A DNA stretch of 64,000 nucleotides from Escherichia coli (GTDB lineage: Bacteria > Pseudomonadota > Gammaproteobacteria > Enterobacterales > Enterobacteriaceae): assembly GCF_044324785.1 (NCBI RefSeq), contig NZ_CP172127.1; one strand, written 5' to 3'. The position numbers were made by a program, and so were the translations under genes. The notes beneath the pieces were generated by a model, which did not search any database, had not been told where the DNA came from, and saw only the letters and a program-made list of their open reading frames with translations. Positions 12,677 through 52,607 of this stretch are shown here, one piece after another. Within the stretch, counting starts at the first letter, position 1, and every line of letters starts with the position of its first letter.

Positions 12677-13452
12677 TTTTCAGGATAATCTATTGGGGGG
12701 AGGGGATCTTTTCCTCTAAATCTAATTGCACCCACGCCTTGTTTGTCAGACCATTCGCCATTTGCATCCTGACGATACCAGTGATAATCCCCACCCATTC
12801 CTATAAAATTGTGAGGACGAATAAACAATTGAGCTTTATGGTAACCAGATGGACAACTCCCATTATCTAAATCCTTGGCACCATCATTTTTTGACGCTTC
12901 AAAAATACTACTACAAGTGAGTTTAGAAAACTCTTTTCCAGATAATTCTCCAGGTTGTAATCCTCCGCCGCCAAAAATCCTACTCCCAGGATTTCCATAC
13001 CTATTTAGAGCATATGAATAGCAATTATTTACGGCAAGATAATACGCATCTGAATTTAGTTCTCGATTGAATACTGGAGCAGGTTTATCAATTAAGCCCA
13101 GCGGATCAATAGAATAGGTTGGATGTATGGAAGCATATACATACTGATTCCACCCGCCTTCCAGCCCAATCGGATCCTGAGTGATATACCGCCCCTGCAG
13201 CGGGTCATAATAGCGGTGGCGGTTGTAATACAGGCCGGACTCCTCATCATACTGCTGCCCCGGCAGACGGATAAGCTGCTGCAGGTGCTGCGGGTTCTCT
13301 TCATTCAGCAGGTTGCCCCATTCATCATATTCTGCGCACCATTCTGTTGCCCCGTCAGGGCTGATAAGCGTCAGCGGCAGGCCGCGATAGTCGCAGTGGT
13401 AGAGGTGGATTATTCGCAGTGATCTATATGCCAACGTCATCTTATTTTTCAT
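12649..13452 (-). CDS. Orphan Rhs C-terminal fragment (core remnant + DPLGL + variable toxin domain)
   Basis: N-terminal ~115 aa nearly identical to the end of the RhsC core; DPLGL boundary encoded at 13093..13107; downstream ~147 aa unique AT-rich sequence; lacks the remainder of the Rhs core. Confidence 0.6.
13161..13410. repeat. Direct repeat copy A of Rhs core 3' end
   Basis: About 250 bp that aligns in register with 14481..14730, with roughly 18 mismatches by eye. Confidence 0.8.
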
Positions 13453-13504
13453 CTACTCCAACGAGTAGACAAGTTTTTTATTAAACCATTTATACCTTTT
13501 ACGA

Positions 13505-14008
13505 TTAAATTTTCTTATGTAATAGAGGTGAATAATCTTCCCAAAAATCCATACAAGCTTTACTTGCATAAAAGAATCCAGCGTCTGATTCATAAGACAT
13601 AAACTGTGCAATAATAGATAGTTGTATATCTGAAAAATTAAAAACAAAATTCAAAAAATCATCGTGATCCCGATACTCAGGACATAAATATTGTTGAATA
13701 AAATCGGATTCAAAAACCCAAAAATCATTCTTATTAAACAACGAGGCATAAATATACAGAGGGATGTAATAGCAGAATACTTTCTCAGGGAGGAATGTAA
13801 TTCCTAACTCTAAAGCATAAGAGTCATCCTTTATTTTAAAATTGTTGGCTATTTCATTCCATTGTTTCTTTTGGAAAAAATTATATACAATATCCAGTTC
13901 CTCCAGCCCTGTAATATCATTTGAAATATGAGGTAATGGCTGGCATGGGAAATGAATCATAAGTTCATCATAGACTGCACTCTCGTTAGAGAAAATTATT
14001 TTTTTCAT
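13505..14008 (-). CDS. Candidate RhsC immunity protein (RhsI-like), cytoplasmic
   Basis: ORF 13505..14026; ATG at 14008 overlaps rhsC stop as ATGA; no signal peptide; strongly AT-rich. Confidence 0.55.
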
Positions 14009-17000
14009 TTTATTAAGCCACTGCAATCAGCTGCTGTTTTATATGCTTTATTCTCTTCTTCCATATGGGCCTTATCTCCACCACCAAAGCACTGATTATT
14101 AATCTGCTTTCTGACCGAAGCGCACGCCAAATTTATCTCGTACCGTCTCAATATTTCTTTTCTCAGCATCTGAGGAGCGCAAGCTCTAGACTGGTTACAT
14201 AATCTGTTTTTTTCATTTTGTAAGTCACTCAGGTTCTGGGGACTACAGTTACCACCAGGATTTACACCTGACTTATGTTCATCTGTTAATTTGTCGGCTT
14301 CTGGATTAACTTTACGGCCATATTGATCTCTGCGTTGTTGCCCACTTTGGATAACACCACCTGATGAAAACAAACCGCAACTCATCAGTGCTACAACACC
14401 AAGAATTAACGGATTTAACCCTTGTGGGTCTATCTCTGAGATCGGATTTAACGGATACTGATAAAAATTCCATCCCCCCTTCAGTCCAATCGGATCCTGA
14501 GTGATATACCGCCCCTTCAGCGGGTCATAATAGCGGTGGCGGTTGTAATACAGGCCGGACTCCTCATCATACTGCTGACCCGGCAGGCGGATGAGCTGCT
14601 GCAGCTGGTGCGGGTTCTCTTCATTCAGCAGGTTGCCCCATTCATCGTATTCTGCGCACCATTCTGTTGCCCCTTCCGTGCTGACAAGCGCCAGCGGCAG
14701 GCCGCGATGGTCGCAGTGGTACAGGTGGATTTTTCGCGCCGGCGTGTACACCGGGTCCATCTGGTTTTGTATCTGCTCCACCGTCAGGCCGCACGATGCC
14801 AGCCAGCGGCGGCTTTCCTCACTCACCCGGTCAGCCAGGATTTCACTTTCCAGCCGGTCGAGCATCTGCACCAGCACCGGCGGGAACACCACACTGCCAC
14901 CGTCTTCACCGCCGGACTGCTGAAGCGCATCCGCCAGGCTGCGGCGCTGCGTTTTCGCCAGCTCACCGGTGGCGGTTTCGACCCTGATGAGTGGCGTGAA
15001 GCTCCCCGGCTGATAAACCGTCTGGATGCGGGTTCTGTCGTTCTGTATCGTGGTCAGCCGGTCGCCGTCCCAGCCGTACCAGGTCACTTCCGGTTTCCGT
15101 GACAGCGACATCCAGCCCGTCAGGTCCCGTTCACGCCGCCACACCCGTTTTGCCACCCTGCGGCCCAGCGGGTCGTAAAGATAGCGACTTTCGACCAGCG
15201 GCTCTGCATATTGTGTCCGCGTGTAGTGCACCAGCCGGTGCCGGCTGTCGTAATGGTACTGGTGAGTCCGCTCATCATCCGTGCGGATAACCCCTTCCGG
15301 GATGAGGTCGGTTTTCTCTGTCAGCCTGCCGTGACGGTCATACCGGTAAAGATAGTGCGCGTCACGGGCGATACGGTTATCCGGCCACATGCTGAGGGTG
15401 CTGTCCGGGTGCAGCTCCGGGTCGGGCAGGCGGTTGCCTGCCGGGTCCGTGGCATACGGGATGCGGATATCAAGGTTCGCTGCCGTGGTGTGGACGCCGG
15501 TCAGCCTGCCGGTGTCGCTGTAGCTGTAACTCCGGGTCTGGCGCGGGCTGCTGATGCGGATGAGTTCGCCGTTGTCGTTCCAGGTGTAATCGCGGTCATA
15601 CTGCAGGCTGTTCAGGTGCTGGCTCTGTAACTGCCCGGCAGAGGTATAAGCGGTGGTGAGTTCATAACGGCCGAAGCTGCGCAGCGTTTCCCGGTGCAGG
15701 CGGTCGCGGGTATACTCCACCAGCGGTGTGTCGCCGAGTTTCATGCCTGCCAGCCAGCCGCTGCCGTAAGTCAGCCATTCCACGGCGGGCAGGCTGTCCG
15801 GTATACAGCGGTTCGCCAGCCCCTGCGCGTTGTACGCATGTCTGGTTTCATGCTGCCAGAGCAGTGCTTCCGTCTGCGGGTGATGCACCGTCTGGCGCTC
15901 ACCGGTCAGGCGGCCTTTCTCATCATACCCGTAATGCACCGTCACCCGGTGGCCTTCGCTGAGATGGCTGATGCCTGTCAGCCAGCCGCGTTCGTCATAC
16001 TGCCACTGCTCTGCAGGTTCACCCTTCACGGTACGCTGCGTGATGCGGTCTGCTTCGTCATAGTGCCAGTGGGTGACCAGCCCCTCATCCTCGCTGCGGA
16101 TAAGTTTGCCGGTCAGGTCGTGGTGATAACGCTGTGTACGGCCGTCAAAGCCGGTTTCCTGTATCAGCCGGTCGAGTACATCGTAACGGAAGGTGGTGTG
16201 GCTGCCGTTTTCACTGGTCAGGCGGATGACCCGTCCGGCAGCATCGTATTCCATACTGCGCGTCAGACCGCCCTGCGTGGTACGGATGGCCTTTCCCCAC
16301 GCATCGTACTGTGTCCCGTTTCTGCTGCCGTCCGGGGCAATGACGGCGGTCAGGTCACCGGCGGCGTTGTATTCATACCGCGTTTCATGGCCCTGCATGT
16401 CTTTCACCGCAATTAACTGTCCACGGCTGTCGTATGCGCGGTACTGGCTCAGGCCTTCCTCGCGGTGCACCGCCGTCACCTGACCAAAACGGTCATGGTC
16501 ATAACGGGTTACATAACCGGAACAGTCAGTGACGGTCAGCAACTGACCGTAACGGCTCCATGTCATGGTTTTCCGGCTGCCGGTGGCATCTTCCGTTGCG
16601 CAGGGTAAGTCACTGTGTGGATTATCATAACGGTAGCGGGTGATATCGCCGTTGTGTGCGGTTTCCTGAATCAGACGGCCGGATTCATCATATTCCCGGC
16701 GCAACTCCAGCCCGTCAGTCCCGGTGGCTGACGTTAACTGGTTGTGGTGGTTATAGTAAAACGCCGATGCCCTGCCATCCGGTGTGGTGATGCGCGTGAT
16801 GAGTCCCGTCACCACATCCGGGCTGTACTCAGTCGTCCGGCCTGCGGCATCCGTCTGTGCCTTAAGCCTGCCCACCGCGTCAAACTGACTCTGCGTGACG
16901 CTGCCGTCCGCGTGTTCCTTTTTCACCACCCGCTTCAGCCCGCCTTCGCCCTGCGTGTGCAGGACTTCACGGCGGTCCAGGCTGTCGGTGATGGTGATGT

Positions 17001-18156
17001 GGTCTTTCTCATACTGATACGTGTAGCTTAAGCCTGCCGGGTTTAGCTGTTCTGTCACCCGCCCGTCACTGTCGTAACGGTAACGGATTTCCGGCCGGCC
17101 CGTGTGACGGTGCGCCACCATCCGGCCCCGGTATTTATCATCGTAAGTAAAGCTGCGCACCTGTGTGCCGCTGCGGTCATACACCGCCGCCAGTTCGCCG
17201 CGTGGCGTCCAGCCATAGCGTACCAGCGGCGCGGCTGGCAGGTTGTCCGGATATTCCGGGTCGTGCGTCAGCCACACGGCAGACAGACGGATGCCGTTGT
17301 CCCGGCCATATTCGGTGTAACCCGGCAGGGTATCAGGAAAAGCGGACGGTTCCGCCCCGCCGGAAATGGCCTGCTGCCGGGCCTCTTCTGCCCGCAACGC
17401 CTGCGTGGTCAGTACCAGCCGGAAGTGACGCCCGGCACCATCCGTCACGCCGGTGATTTCGCCGCTGAATTCGCCGCCAGCCTCACGGTGGAACGTCTGT
17501 GTGCGCCCGAAGCGGTCCACCAGCCCGGTCAGTACCCGGTACGGCGGCAGTGGCGCAGGCAGCACCTCATCCGCCTCCGGCACCCGCTCACACCAGCCGA
17601 GTACCCACCACGGCCCCTGCGGACTGTTCGTCGCCAGATAACGATGCGGACTCAGGCGAAGCTCTTCCGGCAGCGCCTGCCAGAGTGCGGCCAGCCGGTG
17701 ACCTTCATCCAGTTTCGCCACGCCGCCGCGCACCAGCCAGAGTGACTCGCTGCGGCTGTAACCGTCCTCACCGGGAAACAGGTGCTCAAAATACAGGCTT
17801 CTGCCGCCGTTATCACTGAGTATCAGTGTGTTATCGCGCAGCTGTAAGCGGATATCCGCAGGCATTTTCCAGCCGGGGCCGAGGCTCCCCACCGGCGCGG
17901 GCGTTTTTGTCCGGTAACTGCTGTAGGTGCGGGAGAGGATGAACGGCAGCGGGCCGGGCAGGGCAAGGTCGGTTTCTCCGGGAAGGACCTTCGCACCGAG
18001 CAGCGGATTGACCGGATGGCCGGACGTCACCCCGCCGGGGCACACCGAACAGGCCACGCCGGTGGGGGCACCAATACGTACCCCGGCTGAACCCTGAACA
18101 ATGCTACCGCCATACTGCGTCATGTCGCCCTGACGCGCCGCCGGTTTTCCGCTCAT
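14005..18156 (-). CDS. rhsC: Rhs family polymorphic toxin (PAAR-like N-terminus, YD-repeat core, C-terminal toxin domain)
   Basis: 1383-aa ORF; N-terminus [25 protein letters not shown]; many YD-type repeats; DPQGL encoded at 14416..14430; position between ybgA and ybfA/kdp matches the rhsC locus. Confidence 0.9.
14481..14730. repeat. Direct repeat copy B of Rhs core 3' end (inside rhsC)
   Basis: Partner of 13161..13410. Confidence 0.8.
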
Positions 18157-18345
18157 CTGCTCATCCTTGTTTTATCGGGTTATTTGTCTGCTGACAGGCG
18201 AAACCCTACAGATTTATAAGAAAGCCTTAAGTGAGATATCCGTCAGATAGAAACAATTAGGAAAATATTTATATATGTTTCATGAATATATGTTTCGATT
18301 GGTATAACGGTGTCTAAATATTCCTCTGAACATCTTCCTGATACA

Positions 18346-26015: not shown

Positions 26016-26689
26016 CAAACGTTCTGATTGTTGAAGATGAACAGGCTATTCGTCGCTTTCTGCGCACGGCGCTGGAGGGCGACGGTATGCGCGTCTTTGA
26101 GGCCGAAACGCTGCAACGCGGCTTGCTGGAAGCGGCAACCCGTAAGCCAGATTTGATTATTCTCGATCTCGGCCTGCCCGATGGTGATGGGATTGAGTTT
26201 ATCCGCGACCTGCGCCAGTGGAGCGCGGTGCCGGTGATTGTGCTTTCCGCACGTAGCGAAGAGAGCGACAAAATCGCCGCGCTGGATGCCGGAGCGGATG
26301 ATTACCTGAGTAAGCCATTTGGTATTGGCGAATTGCAGGCCCGCCTGCGCGTCGCTTTACGCCGCCACTCTGCCACCACCGCGCCCGATCCGATGGTGAA
26401 ATTTTCCGATGTTACCGTCGATTTAGCAGCTCGTGTGATCCATCGGGGCGAGGAAGAGGTGCATCTCACCCCGATTGAGTTCCGCCTGCTGGCAGTGTTG
26501 CTTAATAATGCGGGAAAAGTGCTCACCCAGCGCCAGCTCCTTAACCAGGTGTGGGGGCCAAACGCGGTCGAACACAGTCATTATTTGCGTATTTATATGG
26601 GGCATCTGCGACAAAAACTGGAGCAAGATCCCGCCCGCCCCCGCCATTTTATTACTGAAACCGGTATTGGGTATCGGTTTATGCTTTAG
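26012..26689 (+). CDS. kdpE: Response regulator KdpE (OmpR family)
   Basis: 225-aa [20 protein letters not shown]; ATGA overlap with kdpD. Confidence 0.95.
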   Translation: MTNVLIVEDEQAIRRFLRTALEGDGMRVFEAETLQRGLLEAATRKPDLIILDLGLPDGDGIEFIRDLRQWSAVPVIVLSARSEESDKIAALDAGADDYLSKPFGIGELQARLRVALRRHSATTAPDPMVKFSDVTVDLAARVIHRGEEEVHLTPIEFRLLAVLLNNAGKVLTQRQLLNQVWGPNAVEHSHYLRIYMGHLRQKLEQDPARPRHFITETGIGYRFML

Positions 26690-26697
26690 GGTCTGAA

Positions 26698-26734
<37 letters not shown>

Positions 26735-42378: not shown

Positions 42379-42597
42379 ACCCATCATTAAAATCACCCTA
42401 TTCAATAAAACCCGTCAAAAATTATCGATCCATCAATAAATACGCCACCACACCCTATCCTTTTTCACAAATCAGCAATCGCCATTACGTTTTTTATTTT
42501 TCCACCGCCAAATCGCTTGCGCACAGTGCTGCTTTGCGGCATTTTTTTAAACAAGCAAACACAACAAGCAACAAATACCAGGTTAACGGAGAAGGTT

Positions 42598-44262
42598 ATG
42601 TGTTCAATTTTTGGCGTATTCGATATCAAAACAGACGCAGTTGAGCTGCGTAAGAAAGCACTCGAGCTGTCACGCCTGATGCGTCATCGTGGCCCGGACT
42701 GGTCCGGTATTTATGCCAGCGATAACGCCATTCTCGCCCACGAACGTCTGTCAATTGTTGACGTTAACGCGGGGGCGCAACCTCTCTACAACCAACAAAA
42801 AACTCATGTGCTGGCAGTAAACGGTGAAATCTACAACCACCAGGCATTGCGCGCTGAATATGGCGATCGTTACCAGTTCCAGACCGGGTCTGACTGTGAA
42901 GTGATCCTCGCGCTGTATCAGGAAAAAGGGCCGGAATTTCTCGACGACTTGCAGGGCATGTTTGCCTTTGCCCTGTACGACAGCGAAAAAGATGCATATC
43001 TGATTGGTCGCGACCATCTGGGGATCATCCCACTGTATATGGGCTATGACGAACACGGTCAGCTGTATGTGGCCTCAGAAATGAAAGCCCTCGTGCCAGT
43101 TTGCCGCACGATTAAAGAGTTTCCGGCGGGGAGCTATTTGTGGAGTCAGGACGGCGAAATCCGTTCTTATTATCATCGCGACTGGTTCGACTACGATGCG
43201 GTGAAAGATAACGTGACCGACAAAAACGAGCTGCGTCAGGCACTGGAAGATTCCGTTAAAAGCCATCTGATGTCTGATGTGCCTTACGGTGTGTTGCTTT
43301 CTGGTGGTCTGGATTCCTCAATTATTTCCGCTATCACCAAGAAATACGCCGCCCGTCGCGTGGAAGATCAGGAACGCTCTGAAGCCTGGTGGCCGCAGTT
43401 GCACTCCTTTGCTGTAGGTCTGCCGGGCTCACCGGATCTGAAAGCAGCCCAGGAAGTGGCAAACCATCTGGGCACGGTGCATCACGAAATTCACTTCACT
43501 GTACAGGAAGGTCTGGATGCCATCCGCGACGTGATTTACCACATCGAAACTTATGATGTGACCACTATTCGCGCTTCAACACCGATGTATTTAATGTCGC
43601 GTAAGATCAAGGCGATGGGCATTAAAATGGTGCTGTCCGGTGAAGGTTCTGACGAAGTGTTTGGCGGTTATCTATACTTCCACAAAGCGCCGAACGCTAA
43701 AGAGTTGCATGAAGAGACGGTGCGTAAACTGCTGGCCCTGCATATGTATGACTGCGCGCGTGCCAACAAAGCGATGTCAGCCTGGGGCGTGGAAGCACGC
43801 GTTCCGTTCCTCGACAAAAAATTCCTTGATGTGGCGATGCGCATTAACCCACAGGATAAAATGTGCGGTAACGGCAAAATGGAAAAACACATCCTGCGTG
43901 AATGTTTTGAAGCGTATCTGCCTGCAAGCGTGGCCTGGCGGCAAAAAGAGCAGTTCTCCGATGGCGTCGGTTACAGTTGGATCGACACCCTGAAAGAAGT
44001 GGCAGCACAGCAGGTTTCTGATCAACAGCTGGAAACTGCCCGCTTCCGCTTCCCGTACAACACGCCGACCTCAAAAGAAGCGTATCTGTACCGGGAGATC
44101 TTTGAAGAATTGTTCCCGCTTCCGAGCGCCGCTGAGTGCGTGCCGGGCGGTCCTTCCGTCGCTTGTTCTTCCGCTAAAGCGATTGAGTGGGATGAAGCGT
44201 TCAAGAAAATGGACGATCCGTCTGGTCGCGCGGTTGGCGTTCACCAGTCGGCATATAAATAA
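42598..44262 (+). CDS. asnB: Asparagine synthetase B (glutamine-hydrolysing)
   Basis: Start MCSIFGVFDIKTD at 42598 within ORF 42517..44262 (N-terminal Cys nucleophile after Met); 554 aa. Confidence 0.95.
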   Translation: MCSIFGVFDIKTDAVELRKKALELSRLMRHRGPDWSGIYASDNAILAHERLSIVDVNAGAQPLYNQQKTHVLAVNGEIYNHQALRAEYGDRYQFQTGSDCEVILALYQEKGPEFLDDLQGMFAFALYDSEKDAYLIGRDHLGIIPLYMGYDEHGQLYVASEMKALVPVCRTIKEFPAGSYLWSQDGEIRSYYHRDWFDYDAVKDNVTDKNELRQALEDSVKSHLMSDVPYGVLLSGGLDSSIISAITKKYAARRVEDQERSEAWWPQLHSFAVGLPGSPDLKAAQEVANHLGTVHHEIHFTVQEGLDAIRDVIYHIETYDVTTIRASTPMYLMSRKIKAMGIKMVLSGEGSDEVFGGYLYFHKAPNAKELHEETVRKLLALHMYDCARANKAMSAWGVEARVPFLDKKFLDVAMRINPQDKMCGNGKMEKHILRECFEAYLPASVAWRQKEQFSDGVGYSWIDTLKEVAAQQVSDQQLETARFRFPYNTPTSKEAYLYREIFEELFPLPSAAECVPGGPSVACSSAKAIEWDEAFKKMDDPSGRAVGVHQSAYK

Positions 44263-44269
44263 GACGTGT

Positions 44270-44305
44270 ATTATTGCCCCGGAGAAATCCGGGGCAATTT
44301 CAGTT
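44270..44305 (+). terminator. Intrinsic terminator after asnB
   Basis: ATTGCCCCGGagaaatCCGGGGCAATTTCAG hairpin. Confidence 0.6.
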
Positions 44306-44573
44306 ACTGGGGCGCTTGTTGATTCTGATATGCAGTAAGGAAATGTTCCGGGTTTGCCACATCACTGTTTGACAACTCATCACTGTAGGCCAGTACTTCA
44401 TAGATTAATTTCCCACCACTATTGTTGAATTCCGAATTTCATCCTGTATGACAAAAGAATGGCTGTAGGGTGGGGAAAAAACACAAAGTAAACAATAATT
44501 GACGAATATAGCGCCACGCTGTTCGCAACCTAACCAAACAGTCACTTTCGAGCAATTTTCCTTGAAAAAGAGG

Positions 44574-44602
44574 TTGACGCTGCAAGGCTCTATACGCATA
44601 AT
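44574..44602 (+). promoter_or_regulatory. Candidate sigma70 promoter of the tRNA operon
   Basis: TTGACG, 17-bp spacer, CATAAT, followed by GC-rich discriminator GCGCCCCG typical of stringently controlled stable-RNA promoters. Confidence 0.45.
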
Positions 44603-44641: not shown

Positions 44642-44718
44642 GGCTACGTAGCTCAGTTGGTTAGAGCACATCACTCATAATGATGGGGTCACAGGTTCGA
44701 ATCCCGTCGTAGCCACCA
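44642..44718 (+). tRNA. metT: tRNA-Met (CAU), elongator type
   Basis: 77-nt cloverleaf-compatible sequence, anticodon loop CTCATAA, 3' CCA encoded. Confidence 0.9.
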
Positions 44719-44726
44719 TCTTTTTT

Positions 44727-44811
44727 GCGGGAGTGGCGAAATTGGTAGACGCACCAGATTTAGGTTCTGGCGCCGCAAGGTGTGCGAGTTCAAGTCTCGC
44801 CTCCCGCACCA
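44727..44811 (+). tRNA. leuW: tRNA-Leu (UAG)
   Basis: 85-nt sequence with long variable arm, anticodon loop TTTAGGT, CCA end. Confidence 0.9.
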
Positions 44812-44834
44812 TTCACCAGAAAGCGTTGTACGGA

Positions 44835-44909
44835 TGGGGTATCGCCAAGCGGTAAGGCACCGGTTTTTGATACCGGCATTCCCTGGTTCGAATCCAGGTA
44901 CCCCAGCCA
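44835..44909 (+). tRNA. glnU: tRNA-Gln (UUG)
   Basis: 75-nt sequence, anticodon stem CCGGT/ACCGG with loop TTTTGAT, CCA end. Confidence 0.9.
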
Positions 44910-44924
44910 TCGAAGAAACAATCT

Positions 44925-45001
44925 GGCTACGTAGCTCAGTTGGTTAGAGCACATCACTCATAATGATGGGGTCACAGGTTCGAATCCCGTCGTAGCCACC
45001 A
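44925..45001 (+). tRNA. metU: tRNA-Met (CAU), elongator type, second copy
   Basis: Identical to 44642..44718. Confidence 0.9.
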
Positions 45002-45049
45002 AATTCTGAATGTGTCGAATAAGTTCGGCAAATTCACAAACCAATTTGT

Positions 45050-45124
45050 TGGGGTATCGCCAAGCGGTAAGGCACCGGATTCTGATTCCGGCATTCCGAG
45101 GTTCGAATCCTCGTACCCCAGCCA
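45050..45124 (+). tRNA. glnV: tRNA-Gln (CUG)
   Basis: 75-nt sequence, anticodon loop TTCTGAT, CCA end. Confidence 0.9.
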
Positions 45125-45128
45125 CATT

Positions 45129-45156
45129 AAAAAAGCTCGCTTCGGCGAGCTTTTTG
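45129..45156 (+). terminator. Intrinsic terminator of tRNA operon
   Basis: AAAAAAGCTCGCttcgGCGAGCTTTTTG. Confidence 0.8.
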
Positions 45157-45175
45157 CTTTTCTGCGTATATTCAA

Positions 45176-45270
45176 TGTCGAATGCGATGTTGACACGTCT
45201 TATCCTTCAAAGTCGGATGCGACGCTGACGCGTCTTATCCGACCTACGGTTGGCATGCATCCGGCAATGT
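45176..45270. repeat. BIME (cluster of REP elements)
   Basis: Two or three REP-like palindromic units, e.g. GGATGCGACGCTGACGCGTCTTATCCGACCTAC and GCATGCATCCGGCA. Confidence 0.65.
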
Positions 45271-45277
45271 TGTAAGG

Positions 45278-46453
45278 CTACAACCCTAACGCATATTTCA
45301 GCGCCTGACGTTTCAACACGCCAGCACGCTCCGCCGCCATCAAACCAAGATTACGCACAAAACGCAGTGGTGGCAGATTATTGCTGAATCCGGCATAAAA
45401 CAGATCCATACCGCTCTGCATAATGAAGTTATCCGCCATGCGCCGCATCTGGTAACGCTTGAGGATCGGATAACTGGCCCACGCTTCGCCATGGCTGCGA
45501 GCGTTGACCAGAACGTCAATCAGGGCATCGACATCACGATAACCAAGATTCACCCCCTGCCCCGCCAGCGGATGAATGGTGTGCGCCGCATCGCCCACCA
45601 GCGCAAGCCCCGGCTGCACATACTGCAACGCATGGCGGCGCGTCAGCGGAAAAGCGCCAGCGGCAAGCGGTGTTACATACCCAAGACGCGACGGGAAATG
45701 CTTCGCGATTTCCGCCTGTAACTGCGCCATATTCATATTCTGCAACTGGCGAATGCGTGCCGGAGAGTCATACCACACCAGCGATGCCCAGTTATCAAAC
45801 AACGGCAGAAACGCACGAGGTCCATCCGGGGTAAATTGCTGCCAGGTGCTGTCGCCGGGATCGTTCTCACACTGTACGCTAATCAACATACACGACTGTG
45901 CATACTGCCAGGCATGAACGCCAATTCCCGCCATCTGCCGCACCTGCGAATTTGCGCCGTCGGCACCAATCACCAGCTTCGCGCGGATCGTTTCACCGCC
46001 CTTCAGTTCCAGCTCCTGAAGATCATTATGGCGATGCAGCGCAATCAGCGAGCCTGGCACACGTAACGTTACTTTCGGATGCGCTTCCAGCGCCTGCCAC
46101 AGCGCCTGTTGCAGGACAGTGTTTTCCACCATGTAGCCAAGCAACGGTAGCTTAAGTTCAGCGGCGTCAAACACCACATGCGCCGTTTCCCACTCCCACG
46201 TTTCCAGTCTGCGGTAGGGATGGCAACGCATAGCCTGTACCGCGTCCCAGACGCCTAAACCTTTAAGCAATGATACCGAAGCCGCGCTGATCGCCGAGAT
46301 CCGCACGTCCGGCTGGCTGTCAGCGACAAACGGTGCAGGTTGGGCATGTTCGATAACCATTACCGAAAATCCGTGCTGAGCCAGTCCCAGCGCCAGTGCG
46401 CCGCCGACCATTCCTCCGCCGACAATGGCAATTTCCGTTGGTTGATTTGTCAT
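45278..46453 (-). CDS. ubiF: 2-octaprenyl-3-methyl-6-methoxy-1,4-benzoquinol hydroxylase (FAD-dependent)
   Basis: ORF 45278..46459; FAD-binding GxGxxG at N-terminus (IAIVGGGMVGGALALG); start ATG ambiguous between 46459 and 46453. Confidence 0.9.
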   Translation of the reverse strand: MTNQPTEIAIVGGGMVGGALALGLAQHGFSVMVIEHAQPAPFVADSQPDVRISAISAASVSLLKGLGVWDAVQAMRCHPYRRLETWEWETAHVVFDAAELKLPLLGYMVENTVLQQALWQALEAHPKVTLRVPGSLIALHRHNDLQELELKGGETIRAKLVIGADGANSQVRQMAGIGVHAWQYAQSCMLISVQCENDPGDSTWQQFTPDGPRAFLPLFDNWASLVWYDSPARIRQLQNMNMAQLQAEIAKHFPSRLGYVTPLAAGAFPLTRRHALQYVQPGLALVGDAAHTIHPLAGQGVNLGYRDVDALIDVLVNARSHGEAWASYPILKRYQMRRMADNFIMQSGMDLFYAGFSNNLPPLRFVRNLGLMAAERAGVLKRQALKYALGL

Positions 46454-52284: not shown

Positions 52285-52607
52285 GATAACAAAATTCCCC
52301 TATCCAACTTTGGCACATCTATTGCTTTGTTATACAAGGCAAAGCTTGAACCAGCATCAGTACAACCCGATTGCACCACAGCAATCCACGGGTAGCACCA
52401 AAAGAGTGCATTTTAAGAATTTTGCTTCGGAATGGTGCGGCGCATCTCGCAAAAACAAACAATAAAACATCAATATCTTTACATTTAGCCAAACTAAATG
52501 TTACCTAACAAGCACAACACTGCACAATAAAGTTGCAGATGATAACAACACAAACACTCACAACGGGTATCCATGCGTTCTTAACGCAGAAGATAAAGGA
52601 GTTGGAT

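Follow-up and report, generated by a model that had tools for sequence, protein, structure and literature searches.

A five-gene form of the metT tRNA operon in an Escherichia coli genome assembly

Genes and signals of the tRNA array

ARAGORN found five tRNA genes, all on the + strand, in the whole of the window, the 64-kb stretch of E. coli DNA analysed here. The Rfam model RF00005 recovered the identical five genes at 57.6–71.1 bits, where the gathering score is 29, with E-values (5e-11 to 1e-14) that put them well beyond chance. The first-pass annotation had read an array of five tRNA genes at these coordinates, and its reading is borne out by both programs, which give five genes and not seven. 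The window contains no N (count 0). The genes and signals between asnB and ubiF are as follows.

42517–44262, + strand: asnB (asparagine synthetase B), the upstream flank (open reading frame list, E. coli annotation and colinearity with K-12)
44574–44602, + strand: putative operon promoter, TTGACG, 17 nt, CATAAT (consensus scan, 10 of 12 matches)
44642–44718, + strand: tRNA-Met(CAU), elongator, the metT equivalent (ARAGORN and Rfam; sequence identical to K-12 metT)
44727–44811, + strand: tRNA-Leu(UAG), the leuW equivalent (ARAGORN and Rfam; sequence identical to K-12 leuW)
44835–44909, + strand: tRNA-Gln(UUG), a single copy at the site of K-12 glnU/glnW (ARAGORN, Rfam and alignment)
44925–45001, + strand: tRNA-Met(CAU), elongator, the metU equivalent (ARAGORN, Rfam and alignment)
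45050–45124, + strand: tRNA-Gln(CUG), a single copy at the site of K-12 glnV/glnX (ARAGORN, Rfam and alignment)
45130–45165, + strand: predicted rho-independent terminator (terminator scan; identical in K-12)
45171–45240, unstranded: two REP-like 35-bp units just 3′ of the terminator, outside the operon (Tandem Repeats Finder)
45278–46453, − strand: ubiF, the convergent downstream flank (translation compared with K-12 UbiF; exact protein present in public contigs)

The coordinates of asnB are those of the open reading frame as listed, and the annotated 554-aa product would begin near 42598. The intergenic distance from asnB to ubiF is about 1.0 kb, and beyond ubiF lie miaB, ybeZ, ybeY, corC, and lnt. 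The sequence of the putative promoter is unchanged in K-12, in the five-gene E. coli genome GF60, and in the relatives of the window's own lineage described below; between it and metT lies a G+C-rich stretch, GCGCCCCGC. In the predicted terminator, which the scan places at 45130–45155, a T-rich tail follows a stem of 11 pairs whose core is GC-rich, and the two REP-like units behind it are likewise found in K-12 and the lineage relatives.

The array is the canonical metT operon of enterobacteria and has five co-oriented tRNA genes between a single predicted sigma-70 promoter and a single terminator. It lies between asnB and a convergent ubiF, its genes follow the order Met-Leu-Gln(UUG)n-Met-Gln(CUG)n on one strand, and its tRNA sequences, promoter, and rho-independent terminator are as in K-12. 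The likeness to the K-12 operon thus covers the site, the gene order, the strand, the tRNA sequences, the promoter, the outer spacers, and the terminator, whereas the difference is confined to the Gln genes: the window has one copy of the gene for each Gln isoacceptor, which makes five genes instead of seven and an operon shorter by 221 bp. The tandem doubling of both Gln genes that marks the K-12 operon is therefore absent. The seven-gene K-12 layout with both Gln genes tandemly doubled, which the first-pass annotation had given, proved correct, and the comparison with K-12 gives a difference of two units.

When the window was aligned with K-12 and GF60, its operon proved to depart from the K-12 operon in nothing but two clean gaps (109 and 112 columns), and the five tRNA genes that remain match those of K-12 exactly. 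The first missing unit (109 bp) comprises a 75-nt Gln(UUG) gene and the 34-nt glnU–glnW spacer, TCTTCTTCGAGTAAGCGGTTCACCGCCCGGTTAT, and the second (112 bp) comprises a 75-nt Gln(CUG) gene and the 37-nt glnV–glnX spacer, ATTTATTCAAGACGCTTACCTTGTAAGTGCACCCAGT; both spacer sequences are absent from the window. As two units are missing and the rest matches, the array is a copy-number variant of the metT operon rather than another operon.

In K-12 the metT operon is transcribed as a single precursor, from which RNase E removes the terminator before RNase P separates the tRNAs (PMC2241853). Because the promoter and terminator signals are identical, the operon of the window is presumably co-transcribed and processed in the same way. 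The K-12 operon is classed as essential and is the sole source of tRNA-Leu(UAG), Gln(UUG), Gln(CUG), and elongator Met (PMC11480407).

The window as a whole is colinear, in reverse orientation, with about 676–750 kb of K-12, at 93–98% identity along its length. At 26687–26698 it is without about 5.7 kb of K-12 sequence (715363–721058: ybfP, ybfG, ybfI, potE, speF, and speFL), and the inducible ornithine decarboxylase/putrescine antiporter locus appears to be absent from it. An rhsC-like element at 12062–14425 and 14425–18200 has a tip and a downstream region unlike those of K-12; about 2.4 kb with no match in K-12 stands in place of K-12 733314–738944 (ybfB to ybfD), and the rhsC-like region contains a 271-bp internal repeat (13147–13417 and 14467–14737, 92.6% identical). 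K-12 has a copy of IS5 (IS5D) between gltI and lnt; the window, at about 52504–52508, has none. Between asnB and metT, some E. coli have a 438-bp open reading frame for a hypothetical protein of 145 aa with no Pfam hit (3105–3542 in contig L002 and 1605–2042 in contig L146). Its carriers include GF60, ST131 strain 751, and contigs L125, L126, L137, L140, L150, and L152, and it is absent from both the window (44263–44573) and K-12.

Array size in the window's own lineage

The closest relatives were found by looking up the exact UbiF protein of the window in public assemblies; places with the same neighbouring proteins are shown once, so the relatives number at least six. The six public contigs obtained (L123, L124, L127, L128, L129, and L130) have flanks that are 99.9–100% identical to those of the window. 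Four of them span the array: L123, L124, and L128 carry seven genes, and L127 carries eight, with two Gln(UUG) and three Gln(CUG) genes, an expansion within the lineage of the window itself. L123, L124, and L128 match the window over 3,413 + 5,153 flanking bases, without any mismatch in L123 and with a single one in each of L124 and L128. For L127 the matching flanks are 3,302 + 5,153 bases long, and the 3,302-base stretch contains two mismatches and two gaps. The remaining two, L129 and L130, end inside the array yet contain the glnV–glnX spacer. At least two Gln(CUG) genes are therefore present in all six relatives, and two Gln(UUG) genes in all four that span the array. A six-gene intermediate was not seen among these six relatives with identical flanks.

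The corresponding look-ups of the exact Lnt and MiaB proteins gave other E. coli backgrounds, at 97.6–98.5% identity, and only UbiF reached the lineage of the window. Among complete E. coli genomes in RefSeq, the best match reaches 97.9% identity over 10 kb and 97.4% over 25 kb. E. albertii is more distant than E. coli, at 95.0% in the asnB–miaB region. The window belongs to an Escherichia lineage near E. coli or on its margin.

At the level of single bases, the operon of the window aligns as that of its relatives minus whole units, with no other change. In the seven-gene contig L123, each Gln pair carries 77-nt perfect direct repeats, with periods of 109 and 112 nt. The metU–glnV spacer of the window reads GTGTCGAATAAG...CACAAACC, as it does in L123, L127, and L128, unlike in K-12 and in the five-gene genome GF60. 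Because the relatives with identical flanks keep seven or eight genes, the five-gene state, as judged from these alignments, is derived, recent, and so far private to the window sequence among the relatives sampled. The retention of the lineage's own metU–glnV spacer variants indicates that the allele arose in place and did not come from another lineage.

Copy number of the operon in E. coli and other Enterobacterales

Junction-specific queries were run against the 5,426 complete E. coli genomes in RefSeq. The glnU–glnW junction is present in 5,342 of them (84 without), with up to three copies per genome, and the glnV–glnX junction in 5,267 (159 without), with up to four copies per genome. The junction losses together with the extra junction copies indicate that contractions and expansions both occur, at low frequency. 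About 15 of the 5,426 genomes have the five-gene layout, as judged by a single colinear alignment to the operon and flanks of the window: GF60, IPCEC31, ECCTRSRTH03, FDAARGOS_1077, CEA106S, STK39-3-E, GF66.1, TUM9757, 2824, AVS0543, AVS0790, AVS0967, GF8, GF161, and GF54. Annotation confirms five genes in GF60 and FDAARGOS_1077. This count uses rows that align in a single piece; the larger set with at least 80% coverage (42 genomes) joins overlapping pieces and so includes six-gene genomes. ST131 strain 751, checked among rows H187–H197, has six genes, with one Gln(UUG) and two Gln(CUG).

Of two random samples of public contigs, the first contained 7, 7, 6, 7, 7, 7, and 7 genes, and the second comprised seven contigs with seven genes, one with eight, and one with five. 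Arrays of eight genes are found in L127 and L151, and an array of five in L156. Layouts of another kind were also encountered. Contig L155 (CP127835.1, 1–2100) has Gln(CUG) alone beside ubiF, followed by 5 Ns and by rsmC/holD-like genes that replace asnB, and WB61 and ST648 genomes (rows H125, H159, H161, and H207) have an odd Gln–Leu junction, the leuW match in WB61 being only 95.6% identical. The layouts of L155, WB61, and ST648 may be rearrangements or misassemblies.

The public five-gene alleles of E. coli (FDAARGOS_1077, GF60, IPCEC31, and TUM9757, and scaffold KE136868.1) share with the window both the layout and the two unit losses, but they stand in other backgrounds (96.7–98.2% identity) and carry other spacer variants. 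Given these differences in background and spacers, the allele of the window appears to have arisen independently in its own lineage.

A survey beyond E. coli used a 44-nt leuW pattern on species-representative genomes and gave at least 120 loci, with 97 complete operons; E. albertii and one divergent 'E. coli' are among the loci. The order Met-Leu-Gln(UUG)n-Met-Gln(CUG)n is the commonest among the 97 operons listed. By numbers of Gln(UUG) and Gln(CUG) genes, respectively, these divide into 2+2 (34 operons), 2+1 (18), 1+2 (10), 2+3 (3), and 1+1 (2), the rest being rearranged. Among the matches listed, the 2+2 layout occurs in E. albertii, Citrobacter, Enterobacter, and Kluyvera, and the 1+1 layout in Morganella psychrotolerans (L018) and a Pluralibacter metagenome-assembled genome (L079).

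Changes of this kind have precedents. Spontaneous recombination between metT and metU in Salmonella deletes leuW-glnU-glnW on the plasmid pUST313 (PMC5400242). That event resembles the one considered here in being a homology-driven deletion between tRNA repeats of the metT operon that leaves a hybrid gene; it differs in that it involves the Met repeats, removes three genes, and took place on a multicopy plasmid under selection, whereas in the window the Gln repeats on the chromosome are concerned and selection is not known. The gly tRNA array of E. coli has three or four copies (PMC4539685), and in Pseudomonas fluorescens SBW25 large tandem duplications alter tRNA gene dose (PMC7661048, PMC10954465). 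In both of these systems tRNA dose shifts by gain or loss of tandem units, as in the window, but other genes are involved, and the SBW25 events are kilobase-to-megabase duplications under selection rather than losses of 110 bp. The five-gene layout is thus an uncommon polymorphism of a kind that has been described before.

Contraction or assembly collapse, and predicted gene dose

We regard a genuine and recent contraction of the seven-gene form as the best explanation of the five-gene array, with a probability of about one half. Perfect repeats bound the lost segment, the loss amounts to exactly one period, and close relatives without the contraction exist. In the mechanism we propose, the 77-nt perfect repeats would misalign within glnU/glnW and within glnV/glnX, and one whole period would be lost from each pair, 109 bp from one and 112 bp from the other, the likely route being replication slippage or unequal exchange between sister chromosomes. 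Each event would leave an intact hybrid gene and unaltered outer spacers. With 77-nt repeats only 109–112 nt apart, classical unequal recombination is no likelier a mechanism than replication slippage, which does not need RecA. The proposal of the first-pass annotation, copy-number variation by unequal recombination, therefore stands in part: exact units are lost between 77-nt perfect repeats and the array varies in both directions, but slippage is at least as likely a route, and collapse of the repeats during assembly is a serious rival. We infer that the loss took place in the cell, and we do so likewise for its molecular route, the co-transcription of the genes, and the effect on dosage.

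The exact loss of one period between perfect repeats points to homology-driven misalignment, and this would hold for a replication fork and for an assembly graph alike. We put the chance that the organism truly has seven genes, and that the assembler crossed each 77-nt repeat only once and dropped loops of 109 and 112 bp, somewhat under even. The k-mers chosen for 150-base reads are often no longer than these 77-nt repeats. Among the seven known members of its lineage, the window alone has a 1+1 array, the six others keeping duplicates, and both losses are exact loop skips without any further change. In addition, contraction needs two separate losses, and one assembler error that removed both loops would be simpler.

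The locus is also error-prone in public assemblies, where a gap, contig ends, and 'complete' genomes without leuW are found in it. Scaffold L125 (KB733122.1) has 305 Ns inside the operon (5300–6000), and the draft contigs L129, L130, and L131 end within the Gln(CUG) repeats; short-read assemblies break at this array as a matter of routine. leuW is absent from 13 of the 5,426 'complete' E. coli genomes, about as often, in order of magnitude, as the five-gene layout occurs (about 15 of 5,426). HS13-1 (L132, NZ_CP026491.1, 1944–2143) has the operon reduced to Met-Gln(CUG), and one assembly of MC1061 (L133, NZ_CP195014.1, 1943–2141) likewise has Met-Gln(CUG) only; in another assembly of MC1061 (L144) the seven genes are all present. 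Since the operon is essential and the sole source of its tRNAs in K-12, and since the other MC1061 assembly keeps the full operon, the layouts without leuW, which would probably be lethal, most likely reflect assembly errors between metT and metU. Both five-gene and implausible layouts come from the strain series GF, AVS, and IPCEC.

Other observations argue against collapse and for a genuine contraction, which the recombination seen in Salmonella and the expansion in L127 also support. The five-gene layout occurs in matching backgrounds across unrelated strain series, including an FDA-ARGOS reference genome; ECCTRSRTH03, FDAARGOS_1077, CEA106S, and STK39-3-E show that some five-gene backgrounds recur across unrelated strain series, sources, and hosts. 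Because of this recurrence, the five-gene state can be real and heritable, and it exists biologically. The window itself runs for 64 kb without a gap through the rhsC-like element, which would be more typical of a long-read or finished assembly, in which collapse of 110 bp is less expected. The window also keeps the larger metT–metU loop intact, although the repeat beneath that loop is of similar length. Tandem Repeats Finder and self-BLAST were used to look for an internal control for collapse and revealed no further large tandem or long repeat in the window.

The two losses occur together more often than independence would predict. With the 13 genomes without leuW left out of the estimate, about 71 genomes are without the glnU–glnW junction and about 146 without the glnV–glnX junction, so that about two genomes with both losses are predicted, against about 15 observed, in at least seven sequence backgrounds. 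This excess could come from clonal inheritance, from a shared assembly artefact, in which case it would favour collapse, or from selection for a balanced dose of the Gln isoacceptors. On the last of these, the 1+1 array would be a recurrent, selectively maintained 'low-dose' allele, in which loss of a second Gln gene is favoured after the first; we consider this unlikely. If it were true, the second loss would restore the balance of CAA and CAG decoding, or the allele would be an adaptation to niches of slow growth, in which surplus tRNA genes are a burden.

Import of a five-gene allele from another strain by homologous recombination, through transduction or conjugation, would account for both losses in one event. 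Five-gene alleles do circulate in E. coli (L156 among them), and the excess of co-occurrence is compatible with the spread of a 1+1 allele. However, the flanks of the window are identical to those of the seven-gene relatives right up to the array, and its internal spacers are the lineage's own variants, unlike those of K-12 and GF60, so a donor would need to belong to the same lineage. Import of a foreign five-gene allele is thus disfavoured by the lineage's own flanks and spacers, and we hold it to be very improbable. That five genes are ancestral and the seven-gene K-12 layout a derived duplication is scarcely credible: although 1+1 arrays exist in M. psychrotolerans and the Pluralibacter genome, 2+2 outnumbers every other layout in the species survey (34 of 97 among the matches listed), both junctions are present in at least 96% of complete E. 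coli genomes, and the closest relatives of the window have seven genes, and for this lineage, whose nearest members carry seven or eight genes, five-gene ancestry is rejected.

As the array gains, loses, and breaks units in assemblies, even in those called complete, tRNA gene counts that are based on assemblies need to be checked against reads. The practical value of the five-gene array lies in this caution over assembly-derived tRNA gene counts, and its importance is otherwise minor. If the contraction is real and all Gln tRNA genes are in the operon as in K-12, each Gln isoacceptor would depend on a single gene with no backup copy, and the dose of tRNA-Gln genes would be half that of the relatives and likewise halved relative to the co-transcribed tRNA-Met genes. 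Suppressor mutations of the supE or supB type would then have to change the sole copy of the gene. Deletion of redundant tRNA genes in E. coli, in a study whose scope lies outside the Gln genes, tends to make growth slower in rich, permissive media and to be neutral or beneficial in poor media (PMC9981150). Any effect of a real contraction on fitness would probably be slight and would vary with growth conditions: fast growth in rich media may become a little slower, and in poor media the contraction may be neutral or even of help.
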